A DNA stretch of 20,000 nt from Candidatus Aminicenantales bacterium (GTDB lineage Bacteria > Acidobacteriota > Aminicenantia > Aminicenantales > Saccharicenantaceae): positions 50,551 through 70,550 of the forward strand of contig JBEKXF010000016.1 in NCBI GenBank assembly GCA_049512315.1, written 5' to 3'. Within the stretch, counting starts at the first letter, position 1. Each line of letters starts with the position of its first letter. The notes below the pieces were generated by a model. It saw only the letters and a program-made list of their open reading frames with translations. It had not been told where the DNA came from and ran no database searches. Position numbers and translations under genes: made by a program. This document shows, in pieces, positions 742 to 19,672 of this stretch.

Positions 742-1041
742 TCAGAACCGGCCGCGGCCGCCGCCGAAGCCGCCTCTGCCGCCGCCGCCGCCGCCGGCCG
801 GGCGGGGCTGGGCTTCGTTGACCTTGAGGTTCCGGCCCTTGAGGTCCTTGCCGTTGAGACCGCTGATGGCCTTGACCGCCTCGTCCTTGTTCGGCATCTC
901 GACGAAGCCGAAGCCGCGCGGCTGGCCGGTCATCTTGTCCGTGATGATGGCCGCTTTCTCGACCGCCCCGAAGGCCTGGAAGGCCGCCCGGAGGTCGTCC
1001 TCGGTCACCGTGAAGGAAAGGTTGCCTACGTAGATGTTCAT
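742..1041 (-). CDS. RNA-binding protein, single RRM plus Gly/Arg-rich tail (99 aa), paralog 1
   Basis: MNIYVGNLSF (RNP2) ... RGFGFVEM (RNP1) ... GGGRGGFGGGRGRF. ATG at 1041 with AAAGGAG SD; the ORF-track N-terminal extension is not needed. Confidence 0.95.
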   Translation of the reverse strand: MNIYVGNLSFTVTEDDLRAAFQAFGAVEKAAIITDKMTGQPRGFGFVEMPNKDEAVKAISGLNGKDLKGRNLKVNEAQPRPAGGGGGGRGGFGGGRGRF

Positions 1042-1168
1042 ACTCGTCTCCTTTGACGAAGGGTCCGTCCGGGTGGCTTCCCCGACGCCCCGTCCCAAAA
1101 AATCGATCGCAATAAAGGAGAGGAGTATGTCGGCTGTTAGGGCCTCTGCCCTCTATACCTTTATCCGA
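1039..1168 (-). promoter_or_regulatory. Conserved structured 5' leader of RRM gene 1 (anti-SD, small hairpin, upstream box)
   Basis: 1114-1129 is a 15/16 inverted repeat of the SD+ATG region 1039-1054. Hairpin at 1139-1152 and box ACCTTTATCCGA at 1157-1168. All three elements recur upstream of paralog 2. Confidence 0.7.
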
Positions 1169-1202
1169 CCCGTGCCCCCTTAACGGGGGAATTTCACCCC
1201 AT

Positions 1203-1231
1203 AGAGTACCATAAAAGGCCGCCCTCGTAAA
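1203..1231 (-). promoter_or_regulatory. Putative sigma70 promoter of RRM gene 1
   Basis: Minus strand TTTACG (1231-1226), 17 nt spacer, TACTCT (1208-1203), with an extended -10 TG. Confidence 0.5.
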
Positions 1232-1338: not shown

Positions 1339-1373
1339 AAAAAGAGGGGAACGCGATGCCTCGCGTTCCCCTC
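1339..1373 (-). terminator. Intrinsic terminator of the M16 peptidase operon
   Basis: Perfect 13-bp stem GAGGGGAACGCGA/TCGCGTTCCCCTC (1344-1373), 4-nt loop, then a T5 tract on the minus strand, 12 nt after the stop codon. Confidence 0.9.
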
Positions 1374-1385
1374 GAGAGGCATTCG

Positions 1386-2837
1386 CTATTTCGTCTTGGC
1401 CGGAGGAGGGGGCGGGATGGAGATATCGATCGTTTTCACCTGGCCCAGCGTGGACAAGGGCTTGTCGAAATCGGCGGCCTTGCCCACGACCAGGATCTGG
1501 ACCTGATCGGGCTTGAGGTACTTCTTGGCCACGCGCAGGACATCGGCCTTGGTGACCTTTTCCACACCTGATTTCACCTTTTCGGTGAAGTCCAGCGGAT
1601 ACCCGTAATAAGCGTAGGTGAGCATCCGGTTGATGATCTTGGCCCGGCTGTCGAAACGAAAGACAAAGGAGTTCAGATATTGGTCTTTGGCCTTGGCCAA
1701 TTCCGGATCGGTCACCTCCTCCTCCGCCATGCGCTTCATCTCCTTGAGCATGAGCTCGATGGCGTGGACCGTCGACTGGGACTTCGTCTGAGCGCCGCAG
1801 CTGAACGTTCCGGGGAAGTCCAGCCGCGAATCATAATCGCCCCAGACGCTGTAGGCCAGGCCTTCGTCCGTCCTGATCTTTTTGAACATCCGGTCGAAGG
1901 ACAGGATGGAATTCATGACGGTCAGGGCCGGAAAGTCCGGGTTGCTCATCAGGCCGCCGATATGGCCGAGCATGATATTGGACTGGTTGACATCCGGCTT
2001 ATCGATGTAGTTAACCGTGAACTTATCTTCGTAGGGCACGGCCGGCCAGGCCGGCACCGCGACCGAACCGGACTTCCAGCGCCCCAGAGTCTTGTTCAGC
2101 ACGGCCTTCAGGGCGGCGCTGTTAAAGTCGCCCCAGACGGCCAGGAGGGTGTTGTTGGGATAAAAATAGGCCCGGTAGAACTTGACCACGTCGTCACGGG
2201 TTATGGACCGGACCGTGGCGTACTCGGGCTGGAGCGCGTACGGCGAGTCCTGTCCATAGATCAGCTTGCTGTATTCGCGCGAGGTGATCCCGCCGATGTC
2301 ATCGTTGCGGCGCTGGATGAAGCTTTCGACCTCGATTCGAGCCAGGTCGATCTTATTTTGGGCAAAAGCGGGATTGGTCAGCATATCGGCCAGGATCTCC
2401 AGGACCCGGTCGATGTCCTCCTTGAGCGCCGACGCCGTGACCGTGCCCGAGGTCTGGTCGATGCCGGTTTCGATCGTGGCGGCCAAAGTCTCCAGCTCTT
2501 TGTCGATCTCGTCTCCGGTGCGCGTGGCGGTGCCGCCCGTGCGCAGGGCCGTGCCGGTCAGGCCTGCCAGGCCCACCTGAGCTGCCGGTTCGAAGACCGA
2601 ACCGGTGCGGACCATGGCTTTCAGGTCGACCGTGGGAAATTCATGATCCTCGACGAGGAAGACGGTCAGCCCGTTGGCCAGCTTGAATTGCTCGACCTTG
2701 GGCATGTGGATCGTGTTCAGGGGCGGGAACGAGAATTGATCCTTGGGATTCTTTTGGGCCGCGAGCGGTCCGCCCAGCAGAAGGAGGAGGACGGACAGTC
2801 CGGCCAGGGCCTTGAGAAAATGTTTGGGAATGTTCAT
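1386..2837 (-). CDS. M16B zinc peptidase family protein, non-catalytic-type subunit, with signal peptide
   Basis: Pitrilysin-like features (LANGLTVFLVEDH, RxDEGLAYSV Arg/Tyr motif) but no HxxEH. The probable start MNIPK at 2837 has an AAGGA SD. Confidence 0.88.
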   Translation of the reverse strand: MNIPKHFLKALAGLSVLLLLLGGPLAAQKNPKDQFSFPPLNTIHMPKVEQFKLANGLTVFLVEDHEFPTVDLKAMVRTGSVFEPAAQVGLAGLTGTALRTGGTATRTGDEIDKELETLAATIETGIDQTSGTVTASALKEDIDRVLEILADMLTNPAFAQNKIDLARIEVESFIQRRNDDIGGITSREYSKLIYGQDSPYALQPEYATVRSITRDDVVKFYRAYFYPNNTLLAVWGDFNSAALKAVLNKTLGRWKSGSVAVPAWPAVPYEDKFTVNYIDKPDVNQSNIMLGHIGGLMSNPDFPALTVMNSILSFDRMFKKIRTDEGLAYSVWGDYDSRLDFPGTFSCGAQTKSQSTVHAIELMLKEMKRMAEEEVTDPELAKAKDQYLNSFVFRFDSRAKIINRMLTYAYYGYPLDFTEKVKSGVEKVTKADVLRVAKKYLKPDQVQILVVGKAADFDKPLSTLGQVKTIDISIPPPPPAKTK

Positions 2838-2860
2838 CGTTTGGTCCTTTCTGCGGCGGT

Positions 2861-4366
2861 TCATTTCTGGGGAACGACCTCACCGATGACCCTGTGGGTC
2901 CGGATGAGGTAGGTGTTGGCCATGCGTTGGACGTCGGCGGTCGTGACGGCGTTGATGGCCGCGATCTGGTCGAAGGCCTGGTGCCAGTCGCCGAACACGA
3001 CGTCGGAATTGGCCAGGAACTCGGCCAGTCCAGCGTTGCTCTGCATCCGATCGATCAGCCCTTTGATGGCGGACCGTTTGTATTTGGTCAGCTCATCGGC
3101 CGTGACCGAATCCTTCTTGATCCGAGCGATCTCCTCGTCGATGAGGTTGAGGCATTCCTCGGAGGTGTGGCCGGGGGTCGAGGCCGCCAGGAAGGCGATC
3201 AGACTGGCCTGCTTCTGTCCGGGGAAGCCGTTAAAACCCTGGACGACCACGGCCACTTTCTTGCTCTTGACGAGAGATTCGTAGAGCCGGGACGAGCGGC
3301 CCTGGCCGAGGATATTGGCCAGCGCGTCCAGGGCTTCATTGTCCTTATGCGCCGCGGGGGGGCGGTGGTAGCCGAGGATAAGAATGGGCATCGACATGGC
3401 CGTGACCGTGGCCGACCGTTCGCCCCACTGTTCCGGCTCTGTGGTCCGGATGGGTTCGGGTTTGGGGCCGGAGGGGATGCGGCCGAAATACAGGTCCGCC
3501 AGGCGAAAGACCTCCTCGGGCTGGACATCGCCCACCACGGCCGCGGTCAGGTTGCCGGGGCTGTAGTATTTTTTGAAATAGTCCTCCACGTCCTGCCGGG
3601 TGATGGACAGCAGGTCGGACATGTGGCCGATGACGTGGTGATGGTAGGGGCTGGCCTTGAAGGCCGTGGCCAGGAAATCCTCGACCAGCCGGCCGACCGG
3701 CTGTGTTTCGACACTCAGCCGCCGCTCCTCCCGGATGACGCTCACCTCCTTGTAGAATTCGCGGAAGACCGGATGGAAAAAGCGGTCCGAGGTCAGGGAC
3801 ATCCAGAATTCGAGCCTGTTGGAGGGCAGACTGCTGATGTATTGGGTGGCGTCGAAGTTGGTGTAGGCGTTCAGGCCGGTATCGCCCTGTCGCATCAGCA
3901 GGTCGAAGCATTCGTTGTTGACCACGAAACTCTTGGCCTTGGCCTCCAGGTCGTCGAATTTTTTCTGCAGCTCCTGGACCTTGGCCGTGTCGGGCTGAAG
4001 CTTGGACTGCTCGGCTTTGAGGGCGGCGTGGGCCGAGTCCAATTGGGCCAGGACCTGCGATTCCTGTTCATAATTGGTCGTGCCCACGGTCTGGGTGCCC
4101 TTGAAAGCCATGTGTTCCAGGATGTGGGAGATCCCGGTGATGCCGTACGATTCGTTGGCCGAACCGACATCGGCATAGACATGGAAGGAAGCGACGGGTG
4201 CCTCATGGCGCTCGAGAACGATGAATTTCATGCCGTTGGCCAGGACGTGAGTCTTGACCCTGCTTTTCAGGGCGTCGAAGCTCTGGGCTTGGACGATCGC
4301 CGCCGCCATCAGGAACAGAACAAGAGAGAGACCGGATCGAAATCGAGGACGGGACCTCATCTGCAT
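2861..4366 (-). CDS. M16B zinc peptidase, catalytic subunit, with signal peptide
   Basis: Inverted zinc motif GISHILEHMAFKG, LNAYT and EVSVIREERR. The start MQMRS at 4366 is preceded by GAGGAGG. Confidence 0.92.
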   Translation of the reverse strand: MQMRSRPRFRSGLSLVLFLMAAAIVQAQSFDALKSRVKTHVLANGMKFIVLERHEAPVASFHVYADVGSANESYGITGISHILEHMAFKGTQTVGTTNYEQESQVLAQLDSAHAALKAEQSKLQPDTAKVQELQKKFDDLEAKAKSFVVNNECFDLLMRQGDTGLNAYTNFDATQYISSLPSNRLEFWMSLTSDRFFHPVFREFYKEVSVIREERRLSVETQPVGRLVEDFLATAFKASPYHHHVIGHMSDLLSITRQDVEDYFKKYYSPGNLTAAVVGDVQPEEVFRLADLYFGRIPSGPKPEPIRTTEPEQWGERSATVTAMSMPILILGYHRPPAAHKDNEALDALANILGQGRSSRLYESLVKSKKVAVVVQGFNGFPGQKQASLIAFLAASTPGHTSEECLNLIDEEIARIKKDSVTADELTKYKRSAIKGLIDRMQSNAGLAEFLANSDVVFGDWHQAFDQIAAINAVTTADVQRMANTYLIRTHRVIGEVVPQK

Positions 4367-4445
4367 AGAAACCTCCTCAAAAAATTTTCTTTGATAAATT
4401 ATGCGAAAATCATGGATAGGAACTGCGGCCCCCCAATACAAAATC

Positions 4446-4475
4446 ATGATATTCTCAGTTGGGAGTCGGTGTCAA
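4446..4475 (-). promoter_or_regulatory. Putative sigma70 promoter of the M16 operon
   Basis: Minus strand TTGACA (4475-4470), 18 nt spacer, TATCAT (4451-4446). Confidence 0.6.
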
Positions 4476-5334: not shown

Positions 5335-5529
5335 GAAATAAAAAAGGGCGGACTGCCCTCCCCGGGCATCCGCCCTTACTTGCGAATAAAGGTCGACCGC
5401 TAGGCTAGATCAGCGATCAAAGCCGGCCGCCGCCGAAGCCGCTCGTCCGGAGACGATCGGTGCGGGGCCGGGTTTCGTTGACCGTCAGGCTGCGACACTT
5501 GAGGTCCTTGCCGTTCAGTCCGGAGATGG
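5335..5529 (-). pseudogene. 3' fragment of an RRM gene with its 3' UTR and terminator (repeat copy C)
   Basis: Encodes ISGLNGKDLKCRSLTVNETRPRTDRLRTSGFGGGRL* (5527-5417), matching the C-terminus of paralog 2 with in-frame deletions. It lacks RNP1/RNP2. The terminator hairpin is at 5340-5377. Confidence 0.9.
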
Positions 5530-5571
5530 TCGTGCGCTTCTCCATAGCCAATTGGTGATATACTTTGAAAT

Positions 5572-6395: not shown

Positions 6396-7172
6396 ATGAT
6401 GAAATATGTCTTCGAAAGTTTGAAAAAAGCTCTCGTCATAGCCGGGACGGAGACACGAAAACTCCTCCATGATCCAACCGAACTTGTGTCCCGCGCCGTT
6501 CAGCCCATCCTCTGGCTCGGGATCTTCGGCGAGGCTTTGAGCAAGGTCCGGGCCATACCGACCGGAGGAGTCACATATCTCCAGTTCATCACTCCGGGCA
6601 TTCTGACGCAGTCGGTGACCTTCGTGGCGATCTTTTACGGACTTTATATCATCATGGATAGGGACGCCGGCATTCTCCAGAAATTCCTGGTGACACCCAC
6701 CCCTCGATTGGCCTTGGTCTGGGGCAAGATGCTCTCCGCGACGGTCCGGGGGCTCAGCCAGGCCCTGATCGTTTTCATCTTTACTTTTATATTAGGGATC
6801 AAGCTCCACATCGGTTTTTGGACGATCCCTGGGGTCATGGTGATCGTCCTTCTCGGGGCAAGCTTTTTCACCGGCCTATCGATGGTCGTGGCGTCCATCG
6901 TCAAAACCCGGGAACGTTTCATGGGCATAGGTCAGGTCATTACCCTGCCGCTCTTTTTTGCCTCCAATGCCATCTATCCAATTCATATCATGCCTCAGTG
7001 GCTCCAGGTGGTGGCCAAGATCAATCCCTTGAGCTATATGGTCGAAGGCCTCCGGTCTTTATTGGTCAGCGGCGTGACGTCCGGGGTTCTGGTCGATATC
7101 GGTATTCTGCTGGCGGCCACTTTGGTCATTTCTTCGATCAGCGCGTACATGTATCCCAAGGTGGTGATCTAA
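6396..7172 (+). CDS. ABC-2 type transporter permease, DrrB-like
   Basis: About six hydrophobic segments, YLQFITPGI, DRDAGILQKFLVTP, PLFFASNAIYP..MPQWLQ..AKINPLSY. Confidence 0.93.
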   Translation: MMKYVFESLKKALVIAGTETRKLLHDPTELVSRAVQPILWLGIFGEALSKVRAIPTGGVTYLQFITPGILTQSVTFVAIFYGLYIIMDRDAGILQKFLVTPTPRLALVWGKMLSATVRGLSQALIVFIFTFILGIKLHIGFWTIPGVMVIVLLGASFFTGLSMVVASIVKTRERFMGIGQVITLPLFFASNAIYPIHIMPQWLQVVAKINPLSYMVEGLRSLLVSGVTSGVLVDIGILLAATLVISSISAYMYPKVVI

Positions 7173-7204
7173 GGGCGGACTGCCCAACCCGGGCATCCGC
7201 CCTT
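7171..7204. repeat. Isolated copy (D) of the RRM terminator hairpin
   Basis: AAGGGCGGACTGCCCAACCCGGGCATCCGCCCTT is identical to 19053-19086 and overlaps the permease stop codon. Confidence 0.92.
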
Positions 7205-19035: not shown

Positions 19036-19048
19036 ACTCCGTGAAAAT

Positions 19049-19086
19049 AAAAAAGGGCGGACTGCCCAACCCGGGCATCCGCCCTT
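19049..19086 (-). terminator. Intrinsic terminator of RRM gene 2 (repeat copy F), possibly also ending the rrn transcript
   Basis: Minus strand AAGGGCGGATGCCCGGGTTGGGCAGTCCGCCC followed by TTTTTTATTTT. Confidence 0.85.
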
Positions 19087-19125
19087 ACTTGCGAATAAAG
19101 GTTGACCGCTAAATCAGATCAGCGA

Positions 19126-19440
19126 TCAGAACCGGCCGCGGCCGCCGCCGAAGCCACCCCTGCCGCCGGCGCTGCCGCCGCTCGTCCGGGGACGATCGGT
19201 GCGGGGCCGGGCTTCGTTGACCGTCAGGCTGCGACCCTTGAGGTCCTTGCCGTTCAGTCCGGAGATGGCCTTATCGGCCTCTTCCTTGTTCGGCATCTCA
19301 ACGAAGCCGAAGCCGCGCGACTCACCAGAGAACTTGTCCTTGATGATGGACGCGGTCTGAACCGCCCCGAAGGCCTCGAAGGCTTCCTTGAGGTCCTGCT
19401 CGGTAGCGGTCCGGGAAATGTTTCCAACGTAGATGTTCAT
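19126..19440 (-). CDS. RNA-binding protein, single RRM plus Gly/Arg-rich tail (104 aa), paralog 2
   Basis: MNIYVGNISR (RNP2) ... RGFGFVEM (RNP1) ... GGRGGFGGGRGRF. ATG at 19440 with AAGGAG SD. The ORF-track extension runs through the 5S rRNA and is spurious. Confidence 0.95.
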   Translation of the reverse strand: MNIYVGNISRTATEQDLKEAFEAFGAVQTASIIKDKFSGESRGFGFVEMPNKEEADKAISGLNGKDLKGRSLTVNEARPRTDRPRTSGGSAGGRGGFGGGRGRF

Positions 19441-19531
19441 ACATCTCTCCTTATAGATTTTGCTCCGTAATAAAGGAGAGGAGTATGACCGACCGACTGA
19501 TGGGGCCCGTGCCCCTCCGACCTTTATCCGA
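19438..19531 (-). promoter_or_regulatory. Conserved structured 5' leader of RRM gene 2
   Basis: 19473-19487 is a 13/15 inverted repeat of SD+ATG (19438-19452). Hairpin GGGGC/GCCCC at 19502-19515 and box ACCTTTATCCGA at 19520-19531. Confidence 0.7.
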
Positions 19532-19554
19532 TGAGCTTTTAAGTAACAAAATAA

Positions 19555-19672
<118 letters not shown>

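Follow-up and report, generated by a model that had tools for sequence, protein, structure and literature searches.

Conserved leaders of RRM genes in Aminicenantales resemble a translational switch with a decoy Shine-Dalgarno sequence

The window analysed here is a stretch of 20,000 nucleotides (nt) from a Candidatus Aminicenantales bacterium (assembly GCA_049512315.1, contig JBEKXF010000016.1, positions 50,551 to 70,550), and it encodes two small proteins that combine an RNA recognition motif (RRM) with a glycine-rich tail. Both RRM genes and their leaders lie on the minus strand, from which the mRNA is read, and all coordinates are window positions (Table 1). Single-RRM proteins are emerging as main RNA chaperones in bacteria that lack Hfq, CsrA or cold-shock proteins, and we know of hardly any account of how bacteria control them. 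The initial annotation had proposed that the two leaders are a conserved cis-regulatory RNA in which an anti-Shine-Dalgarno (anti-SD) strand pairs either with the Shine-Dalgarno sequence (SD) and start codon or with an upstream box, an anti-SD/anti-anti-SD layout. We found this layout to be family-wide, with both competing helices keeping their pairing through two-sided changes. As read from sequence, the elements are present and conserved before RRM genes across one bacterial order, the predicted helices are mutually exclusive, and both carry compensatory changes; the leader probably switches production of the RRM protein on and off.

The two leaders have the same order of elements: an A box, a GC hairpin (H), a linker, element B, a variable insert (V), and element C, which contains the SD and the start codon. 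Across the two, the A box takes the form (G)GUCGGAUAAAGG or UCGGAUAAAGG, and a 12-nt box that had been annotated as identical, UCGGAUAAAGGU, is indeed shared without a difference by leader 1 (1168..1157) and leader 2 (19531..19520). Hairpin H is likewise as annotated, a 5-bp tetraloop hairpin that varies in sequence while its pairing is kept. Element B is one pyrimidine strand with the core CAUACUCCUCUCCUUUAUU.CG; its 18-nt anti-SD, CAUACUCCUCUCCUUUAU, does not differ between the leaders, and the 18-mer CATACTCCTCTCCTTTAT of B occurs exactly twice in the window, once in each leader (expectation in shuffled windows 0.00; 0/200 shuffles reach two). This strand presumably resembles the ribosomal anti-SD; the 3' end of the 16S rRNA, which we sought in order to compare its tail with B, was not located in the assembly. 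The insert V is about 20 to 120 nt long in the family.

Element B can pair with C or with the A box. In leader 1, CAUACUCCUCUCCUUU (1129..1114) pairs with AAAGGAGACGAGUAUG (1054..1039) at 15/16 positions, with one C.C mismatch and a loop of 59 nt, and in leader 2, CAUACUCCUCUCCUU (19487..19473) pairs with AAGGAGAGAUGUAUG (19452..19438) at 13/15 positions around a loop of 20 nt, which reproduces the annotated pairings and loops exactly. This helix, B:C, runs from CCUUU to CAUAC of B, opposite AAAGG...GUAUG. The alternative pairing of AUAAAGG with CCUUUAU exists as well and overlaps the anti-SD, but the helix is longer than the 7 bp first described. This A-box helix, P1, has the general form CGGAUAAAGG x CCUUUAUU-N-CG and further, and it encloses hairpin H and the 5' half of B. 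It comprises 13 bp with one bulged base in leader 1 (GGUCGGAUAAAGG x CCUUUAUU-G-CGAUC) and 11 bp with one bulged base in leader 2. The CCUUU of B is common to P1 and B:C, so the two helices are mutually exclusive there. Judged by its bases, the A box (AUAAAGG) effectively repeats the SD's 5' half (AAAGGAG) and may be called a putative decoy SD. By eye only, the UCGUC at the end of V in leader 1 may also pair locally with the GACGA around the SD.

Table 1. Elements of the two RRM leaders and other features of the window.
Feature	Position	Strand	Details
RRM gene 1	742-1041	-	99 amino acids (aa), glycine-rich tail; Pfam RRM_1, E 7.9e-24
A box, leader 1 (putative decoy SD; 5' strand of P1)	1158..1170	-	GGUCGGAUAAAGG; 13 pairs; family-wide pairing and covariation
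Hairpin H, leader 1	1139..1152	-	AGGGC-AGAG-GCCCU; read from sequence; family pairing
Element B, leader 1	1105..1129	-	anti-SD CAUACUCCUCUCCUUU (1129..1114) overlaps P1 3' strand CCUUUAUUGCGAUC (1118..1105)
Variable insert V, leader 1	1055..1104	-	GC-rich stem-loop; 3' end UCGUC
Element C, leader 1	1039..1054	-	SD and start codon, AAAGGAGACGAGUAUG; read from sequence
RRM gene 2	19126-19440	-	104 aa, glycine-rich tail; Pfam RRM_1, E 5.3e-24
A box, leader 2	19521..19531	-	UCGGAUAAAGG; 11 pairs
Hairpin H, leader 2	19502..19515	-	GGGGC-ACGG-GCCCC; read from sequence and fold
Element B, leader 2	19465..19487	-	anti-SD and P1 3' strand, CCUUUAUUACGG
Element C, leader 2	19438..19452	-	SD and start codon, AAGGAGAGAUGUAUG
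5'-proximal hairpin, leader 1	1175..1189	-	CCCCC-GUUAA-GGGGG; gene-1-type leaders only; loop varies; conserved in orthologues
Predicted promoter, leader 1	1203..1231	-	-35 TTTACG (1231..1226), 17-nt spacer, extended -10 TGGTACTCT (1211..1203)
5S rRNA gene	19555..19671	-	ends 23 nt before A box of leader 2
3' module, about 85 nt	660-745, 1246-1316, 5336-5419, 19044-19129; partial 7171-7204	-	terminator-like hairpin end (CGGGTCGGGCAGTCCG, then T-run)
Remnant of RRM gene 3' half	5336-5545	-	...AISGLNGKDLKCRSLTVNETRPRTDR..., then 3' module
Terminator	1344-1373		strong
Two adjacent M16 peptidase genes	1386-4447	-	insulinase-type
Open reading frame (ORF) of 2919 aa	7404-16163	+	GH94 supersandwich and catalytic domains, glucoamylase-like domain

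We searched for further copies with two covariance models, R1 for the 5' module (A box, hairpin, B) and R2, a second leader model; the large R1 searches used strict filters, so that absence means "not found". In this genome R1 detected four leader copies, all of which precede an RRM gene or, in one case, a pseudogene of that kind. Besides the two in the window, a third (contig C1) precedes a third RRM paralogue, and a fourth (C48) precedes a truncated RRM reading frame and lies just after a 5S-like rRNA gene; a more distant fourth RRM gene (C19) has a different leader. Among 151 genomes of the class, 44 have R1 matches, every one of them in the window's own order (families f1, 25/25; f3, 7/7; f5, 4/4; f9, 3/3; f7, 3/5; f4, 1/1). 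With R1 the leader was not found in family f6 (0/19), in families of other orders (0/86), or in 150 further genomes of the phylum.

The association with RRM genes is close. An RRM-type start follows within 170 nt downstream in 83 of the 85 distinct R1 copies, and the two others lie at a contig end (L200) and before a deleted gene (L227). RRM homologues are encoded in 39/41 related genomes, and 31 of their 36 distinct upstream regions carry an A box and B by set thresholds. A pattern scan of one genome per species for an A box followed 20-50 nt later by B gave at least 121 stretches, of which 80 were listed. An MNIYVGN-type RRM start follows in 58 of these 80; they come from organisms labelled Candidatus Aminicenantes, Aminicenantales, Aminicenantia, or Saccharicenans, and also include one "Acidobacteriota bacterium", two "uncultured bacterium", and third-party bins labelled "uncultured Eubacteriales". 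Of the 22 listed stretches without an RRM start, 21 belong to unrelated taxa and were taken as chance matches (about 30 expected by a rough count), and the remaining one (L075) is cut by its contig end.

The motif had not been recognised in the initial annotation, and a scan of the whole window with Rfam 15 at gathering scores gave no match on either leader, Chlorobi-RRM included. At E values up to 10, over 1000-1400 and 19400-19560, again neither leader was matched. Weak matches at 1265-1400 were rejected, as they fall on the upstream terminator and not on the leader. A literature search found no paper on the RNA recognition motif in Aminicenantes. On these comparisons the leader is a new RNA family, uncatalogued in Rfam, of a kind that is already known. 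It is almost certainly a real cis-regulatory RNA family and would add an entry to Rfam.

Compensatory changes among homologous RRM leaders were found in both helices. For P1 and H, we used the model-aligned class sample (87 matches, 82 distinct rows), in which 88.6% of cells are paired, vs 46-59% with a slid partner, and nine of 16 pairs (62 cells) show two-sided changes, a result that 0/500 shuffles reach. Within this set, hairpin H has 91.7% of its cells paired and two-sided changes in three of its five pairs. The outer pairs of P1 are informative and take AU, GU, UA, CG, and GC; one of them occurs as AU 27, GU 19, UA 9, CG 5, and GC 2 times, and another as AU 16, UA 15, UG 10, and CG 4 times. 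The inner pairs are almost invariant, and one of them flips from U-A to A-U in leaders L022 and L024 (A box GAAGAGGG, B end CCUUUUUC). An unfitted MAFFT alignment gave a weaker signal (88.3% paired, eight double-change pairs, reached by 1/500 shuffles), and from it RNAalifold predicted six inner P1 pairs unaided.

For B:C, we used model-aligned full leaders (86 matches, 83 distinct rows). Here, 88.5% of cells are paired vs 42-54% when one strand is slid, two-sided changes occur in 6/15 pairs, and the overall values are reached by 0/500 shuffles; the unfitted alignment is again weaker (four pairs, 45/500 shuffles). Compensation takes several forms. CAUAC/GUAUG is replaced by CAUGC/GCAUG in L019 and L110, and by CAUUCUC/GAGAAUG (CAUUC/GAAUG) in L184 and L192. 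Both strands carry an insertion (CAUAAC/GUUAUG) in seven distinct leaders of genus g7, among L208-L219, and both have lost one base (GAUCUC/GAGAU) in the gene-1-type leaders L044, L083, L084, L089, and L179. In L030 and L041, CAC stands opposite a GUG start. An alignment-free test agrees in direction: across 58 distinct combinations of a start region with the 5' part of B, the duplex energy of cognate pairs, the cognate mean, is -4.81 kcal/mol vs -3.59 kcal/mol for non-cognate pairs, and 0/5000 permutations reach the cognate mean. Two alternative states are very probably under selection.

One diverged RRM leader, L031 (G008:C8), is matched by neither R1 nor R2. Its SD region GGAAGGGAG and anti-SD CUCCCUUCC form, with their flanks, a perfect 11-bp hairpin, and an upstream GGAAGAGGG resembles a matching decoy that has seemingly changed together with the SD and anti-SD, a comparison made by eye and suggestive. 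If real, L031 would be an independent instance of the decoy logic.

Folding was modelled with nearest-neighbour, nested-only models for 81 distinct leaders. Both leaders of the window fold better than their shuffles (leader 1, z = -2.66; leader 2, z = -2.70; 1/200 shuffles as good in each case), and their minimum free energy (MFE) structures give B opposite partners, with anti-SD:SD in leader 1 and A-box:anti-SD in leader 2. When the 5' module is folded alone, as the RNA stands before the SD is made, P1 forms in 80/81 leaders. In the MFE structures of full leaders, CCUUU lies on the SD in 54-55 of the 81 and on the A box in 23-25. The B:C duplex has about 15 bp and an energy of about -16 to -25 kcal/mol in most leaders.

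We compared the two ensembles by forcing CCUUU to pair upstream or downstream. In the P1-type ensemble, the median unpaired probability is 0.69 for the SD core and 0.82 for the AUG, and in the B:C-type ensemble both are 0.0; every one of the 81 leaders exposes its SD more in the P1-type ensemble, and at 25 C the B:C-type ensemble keeps the SD paired. From 5 to 45 C, the ensembles differ by a median of +0.9 to +1.9 kcal/mol, B:C being favoured (interquartile range about -2.6 to +4.3), with no consistent trend over these temperatures (38/81 leaders shift one way). In leader 2, the states lie within 2-3 kcal/mol of each other and the winner depends on the constraint setting. Direct-path barriers have a median of about 22 kcal/mol at 37 C and about 31 kcal/mol at 10 C; the heuristic is nested-only and omits pseudoknotted strand displacement, so that the absolute values are probably too high and only their direction, slower in the cold, is usable.

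We propose that the leader is a translational switch with three parts, namely decoy SD, anti-SD, and SD. When the switch is OFF, B would pair over about 15 bp with its own SD and start codon in element C. In the ON state, the upstream A box (CGRAUAAAGG) would hold the 3' half of B in the 11-13 bp of P1, which would enclose the GC hairpin and leave the SD and AUG free. The modelled exposure of the SD makes it probable that P1 is the ON state and B:C the OFF state. Because transcription yields the A box, hairpin, and B ahead of C, P1 would be expected to form while C is still absent; this folding order and the near-equal energies of the two states are as modelled. We take the rate of refolding from ON to OFF as the regulated step because the states are close in energy and without equilibrium temperature dependence. 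In the cold, refolding would be slow and a burst of translation would result, and the RRM proteins, as RNA chaperones or binders, would speed or lock the OFF state, which would amount to auto- and cross-regulation with a negative sign. Drawn by analogy, kinetic cold control and/or RRM feedback as the trigger is a tentative proposal, somewhat more apt to fail than to hold. We give the reading as a whole, the switch together with kinetic cold control and RRM feedback, a probability of about 0.5. With its length of about 100-150 nt, the leader offers a small and clearly laid out model of such a switch, from a host lineage (Aminicenantes, of sediment and peat) that is widespread, uncultured, and without genetics.

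The distribution of cold-shock-domain genes bears on the proposed role in the cold. No cold-shock-domain gene (PF00313) was found in this genome (G000, 96.6% complete), and such genes are present in 0/49 genomes of families f1-f5 and f7-f9, nearly all of which bear the motif, and in 6/11 genomes of f6, the family in which the R1 leader was not found. The contrast sets one clade against the rest and counts as one observation. The complementary distribution of the leader and cold-shock-domain genes within the order suggests that one cold-response system replaced the other, and the RRM proteins probably stand in for the absent cold-shock proteins here. A further and rather speculative version of the switch, which we consider unlikely, is that the leader senses RNA-chaperone activity and not a ligand or temperature, the ON fold being a kinetic trap from which the RRM pool catalyses escape to OFF. 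If this were true, all RRM paralogues would be set jointly by the RNA-unfolding capacity of the cell, and the third of RRM genes directly behind a 5S rRNA gene would tie that capacity to ribosome synthesis.

Several points weigh against the switch. The alignments behind the P1 and B:C counts were fitted to the structures tested and so lean towards them, and relatedness is not taken into account in the shuffle controls. Each helix has only a small number of independent compensatory events, perhaps five to eight; many of the cells counted trace back to single lineages, such as the seven rows of genus g7; and most pairs of the A/B/C core are uninformative because the core is almost invariant. Some leaders are uncompensated: gene-3-type leaders have a variable B 5' part against GAGAAUG starts, in L207 and L087 the bases facing CAUAC are GCAUG, a U.U mismatch occurs in L013, and the UUG starts of L027 and L048 have no matching change. 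In the models, leader 1 favours B:C by 5-6 kcal/mol at all temperatures, and its SD is just 0.21 open even in the P1-type ensemble. Outer P1 could coexist with B:C as a pseudoknot, which nested models cannot score, and there would then be less switching. Transcript starts are predicted only, with no promoter recognisable at leader 2, and the cold and feedback trigger is argued by analogy with other phyla.

The strongest competitor to the decoy switch is classical autogenous repression, in which the RRM protein would bind a defined feature of the leader (for instance the run of pyrimidines in B, the GGGC/GCCC hairpin, which hardly varies, or the U-run that follows P1) and block the ribosome or lock the OFF helix, as in ribosomal-protein leaders, with P1 mattering little. 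B and the hairpin stem vary far less than pairing alone would require and the motif is found only before RRM genes, as this would predict, and feedback through the 5' untranslated region (UTR) is reported for Bacteroides RRM proteins in passages of PMC13370968. Repression of this kind leaves the covariation of outer P1, the flip of an inner pair, and the copying of the SD's 5' half by the A box unexplained, and the constancy of B can also follow from its having to match both the A box and an SD fixed by the ribosome. We regard it as unlikely, though not negligible.

Less probable still is a leader without any switch, in which P1 would serve as a stem that stabilises the 5' terminus and B:C would damp translation constantly, both being present at once as a pseudoknot with outer P1 kept. 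Outer P1 and B:C are sterically compatible if the pseudoknot forms, the predicted start in L029, L033, and L035 lies a few bases before P1, and leader 1 strongly favours B:C. Against a fixed fold, five bases are contested between inner P1 (AAAGG x CCUUU) and the SD; inner P1 shows strict conservation, is predicted by RNAalifold, and flips one pair with compensation; and the states are nearly equal in modelled energy across the family, which a fixed fold would not lead one to expect.

An equilibrium RNA thermometer, in which the anti-SD:SD helix would melt or the P1 balance would shift with temperature alone and without a factor, is improbable to a slightly greater degree. In its favour, the helix that sequesters the SD and AUG contains mismatches and bulges, and passages of PMC12232666 and PMC13370968 describe cyanobacterial and Bacteroides RRM genes as cold-responsive. 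Temperature sensing had been one option of the initial annotation, and the modelled folds between 5 and 45 C, with their gap lacking a consistent trend, speak against a simple equilibrium version of it. The B:C helix is moreover long and stable at the energies given above, and its melting would yield induction by heat, not by cold.

A small-molecule riboswitch, with P1, the hairpin, and the linker as ligand pocket and the anti-SD as expression platform, is very improbable. It would share the anti-SD/anti-anti-SD layout of translational riboswitches, and the linker (GAUCGGUCA or CAGCCGA) is conserved and unpaired. The junction is small and differs between leader classes, the three pairing elements account for nearly all conserved bases, RRM genes are not metabolic genes, and no Rfam riboswitch matched at E values up to 10. 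Least credible of all, and next to impossible, is that B is the ribosome-binding site and ATG of a small divergent ORF on the other strand: the plus strand does read ATAAAGGAGAGGAGTATG at 1112-1129 and 19470-19487, a resemblance that arises because B complements the SD and AUG, but the peptides of the two copies differ with the shared box in different frames, and many relatives lack the ATG, their B starting with GAUAC, CGUAC, CAGAC, or CACAC. The reading of B as an antisense ORF or promoter was rejected for the lack of a conserved start codon and peptide. P1 with the U-run as a transcription attenuator was also dropped, by reasoning: the AU-rich stem contains a large interior loop and lies 3-5 nt from the U-run, and C lies downstream and could not serve as an anti-terminator.

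The decoy switch resembles several known systems in its working or role and, by the tests run, is a member of none of those we compared by model (cspA, riboswitch platforms, and Chlorobi-RRM). In the cspA 5' UTR of Escherichia coli (RF01766), alternative folds expose or hide the SD and AUG, the cold fold is set co-transcriptionally, and the protein feeds back on its own mRNA. The likeness lies in the long leader of an RNA-chaperone gene, with two folds that here have opposite SD exposure in the models. The differences are that the RF01766 model gave no match, that the product is an RRM protein and not a cold-shock-domain protein, and that the competing element, which lies upstream, explicitly repeats the 5' half of the SD. 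A cspA-type test of temperature found the folds modelled without an equilibrium trend, with a modelled barrier that is higher in the cold. Compared with ROSE or fourU thermometers, the short, imperfect melting hairpin was not encountered; in its place stands a B:C helix of the length and stability given above. As in the platforms of translational riboswitches, a single strand pairs either with the SD or with a partner upstream, in mutually exclusive helices that here share CCUUU; unlike them, the leader has no sign of a ligand pocket and no Rfam aptamer match, and its upstream partner imitates the SD.

Leaders of RRM genes in other phyla are the nearest in role. Ehira and colleagues reportedly implicated, in 2005, the 5' UTR of cyanobacterial rbpA1 in cold-dependent accumulation, at the level of the transcript. 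The likeness, a leader of a glycine-rich RRM gene, was compared by description only, and the parallel with cyanobacterial RRM genes drawn in the initial annotation holds as an analogy only, with the motif-bearing relatives labelled Candidatus Aminicenantes and not cyanobacteria. Cyanobacterial glycine-rich Rbp proteins are cold-induced according to passages of PMC12232666, and its passages on Rbp3 contain nothing on leader structure. The one catalogued motif known with RRM genes is Chlorobi-RRM (RF01697), a candidate cis-regulatory RNA upstream of RRM genes in one lineage, as described in a passage of Weinberg et al. 2010 (PMC2864571). It shares with the present leader the position upstream of RRM genes, which is found here in 83/85 distinct copies and all four of this genome; it belongs to another phylum, and its covariance model has no match here, even at E values up to 10.

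In Bacteroides, passages of a 2026 preprint (PMC13370968) describe RRM-1 proteins that are cold-induced and that, along with the single cold-shock protein, cells require in order to grow in the cold, and reporters with negative auto- and cross-regulation that acts partly via 5' UTRs of 122-155 nt. The rbpA/B/C genes of these bacteria resemble the present case as single-RRM proteins with long leaders, alongside or in place of cold-shock proteins; they belong to another phylum, were compared by description, and have no leader structure described in those passages.

The transcript of leader 1 is predicted, from sequence, to start near 1196, before the 5'-proximal hairpin and the A box. By eye, orthologous leaders have the same promoter layout (TTGACT/TTTACG, 17-18 nt, TGnTAnnnT), and L029, L033, and L035 have a clear TATAAT promoter; a strict sigma-70 consensus scan called no promoter near leader 1 or leader 2. 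Metatranscriptome contigs of relatives (four runs, 85-95% identity) run contiguously over coding sequence and leader from 821 to 1181/1190, with none from 1196 on, a weak hint that the whole motif is transcribed; such contigs cannot show a transcript start, and two of the four runs are perhaps from one campaign. No promoter could be recognised in the stretch from the 5S rRNA gene to the leader 2 A box, and leader 2 may be read through from the rRNA operon.

The 3' end of a 5S rRNA gene also lies within 260 nt upstream of 17 of the 51 motif copies that have at least 150 nt of flank, in several families. Such RRM genes may be the last genes of rRNA operons.

A 3' module of about 85 nt follows both RRM genes, an M16 peptidase gene, and a fragment of an RRM gene, with 87-88% identity to the gene-1 copy (Table 1). 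The module may represent a 3' UTR or terminator cassette common to these genes, or else some small repeat. What remains in the RRM fragment is the 3' half of such a gene, with neither N-terminus nor leader; a 140-aa ORF that overlaps it has no Pfam match. A second RRM fragment lies on contig C4. Upstream of RRM gene 1 lie the two M16 peptidase genes, which are closed by the strong terminator. The largest reading frame of the window, on the plus strand, has by its domains the build of a giant enzyme of the cyclic beta-1,2-glucan synthase or phosphorylase type.

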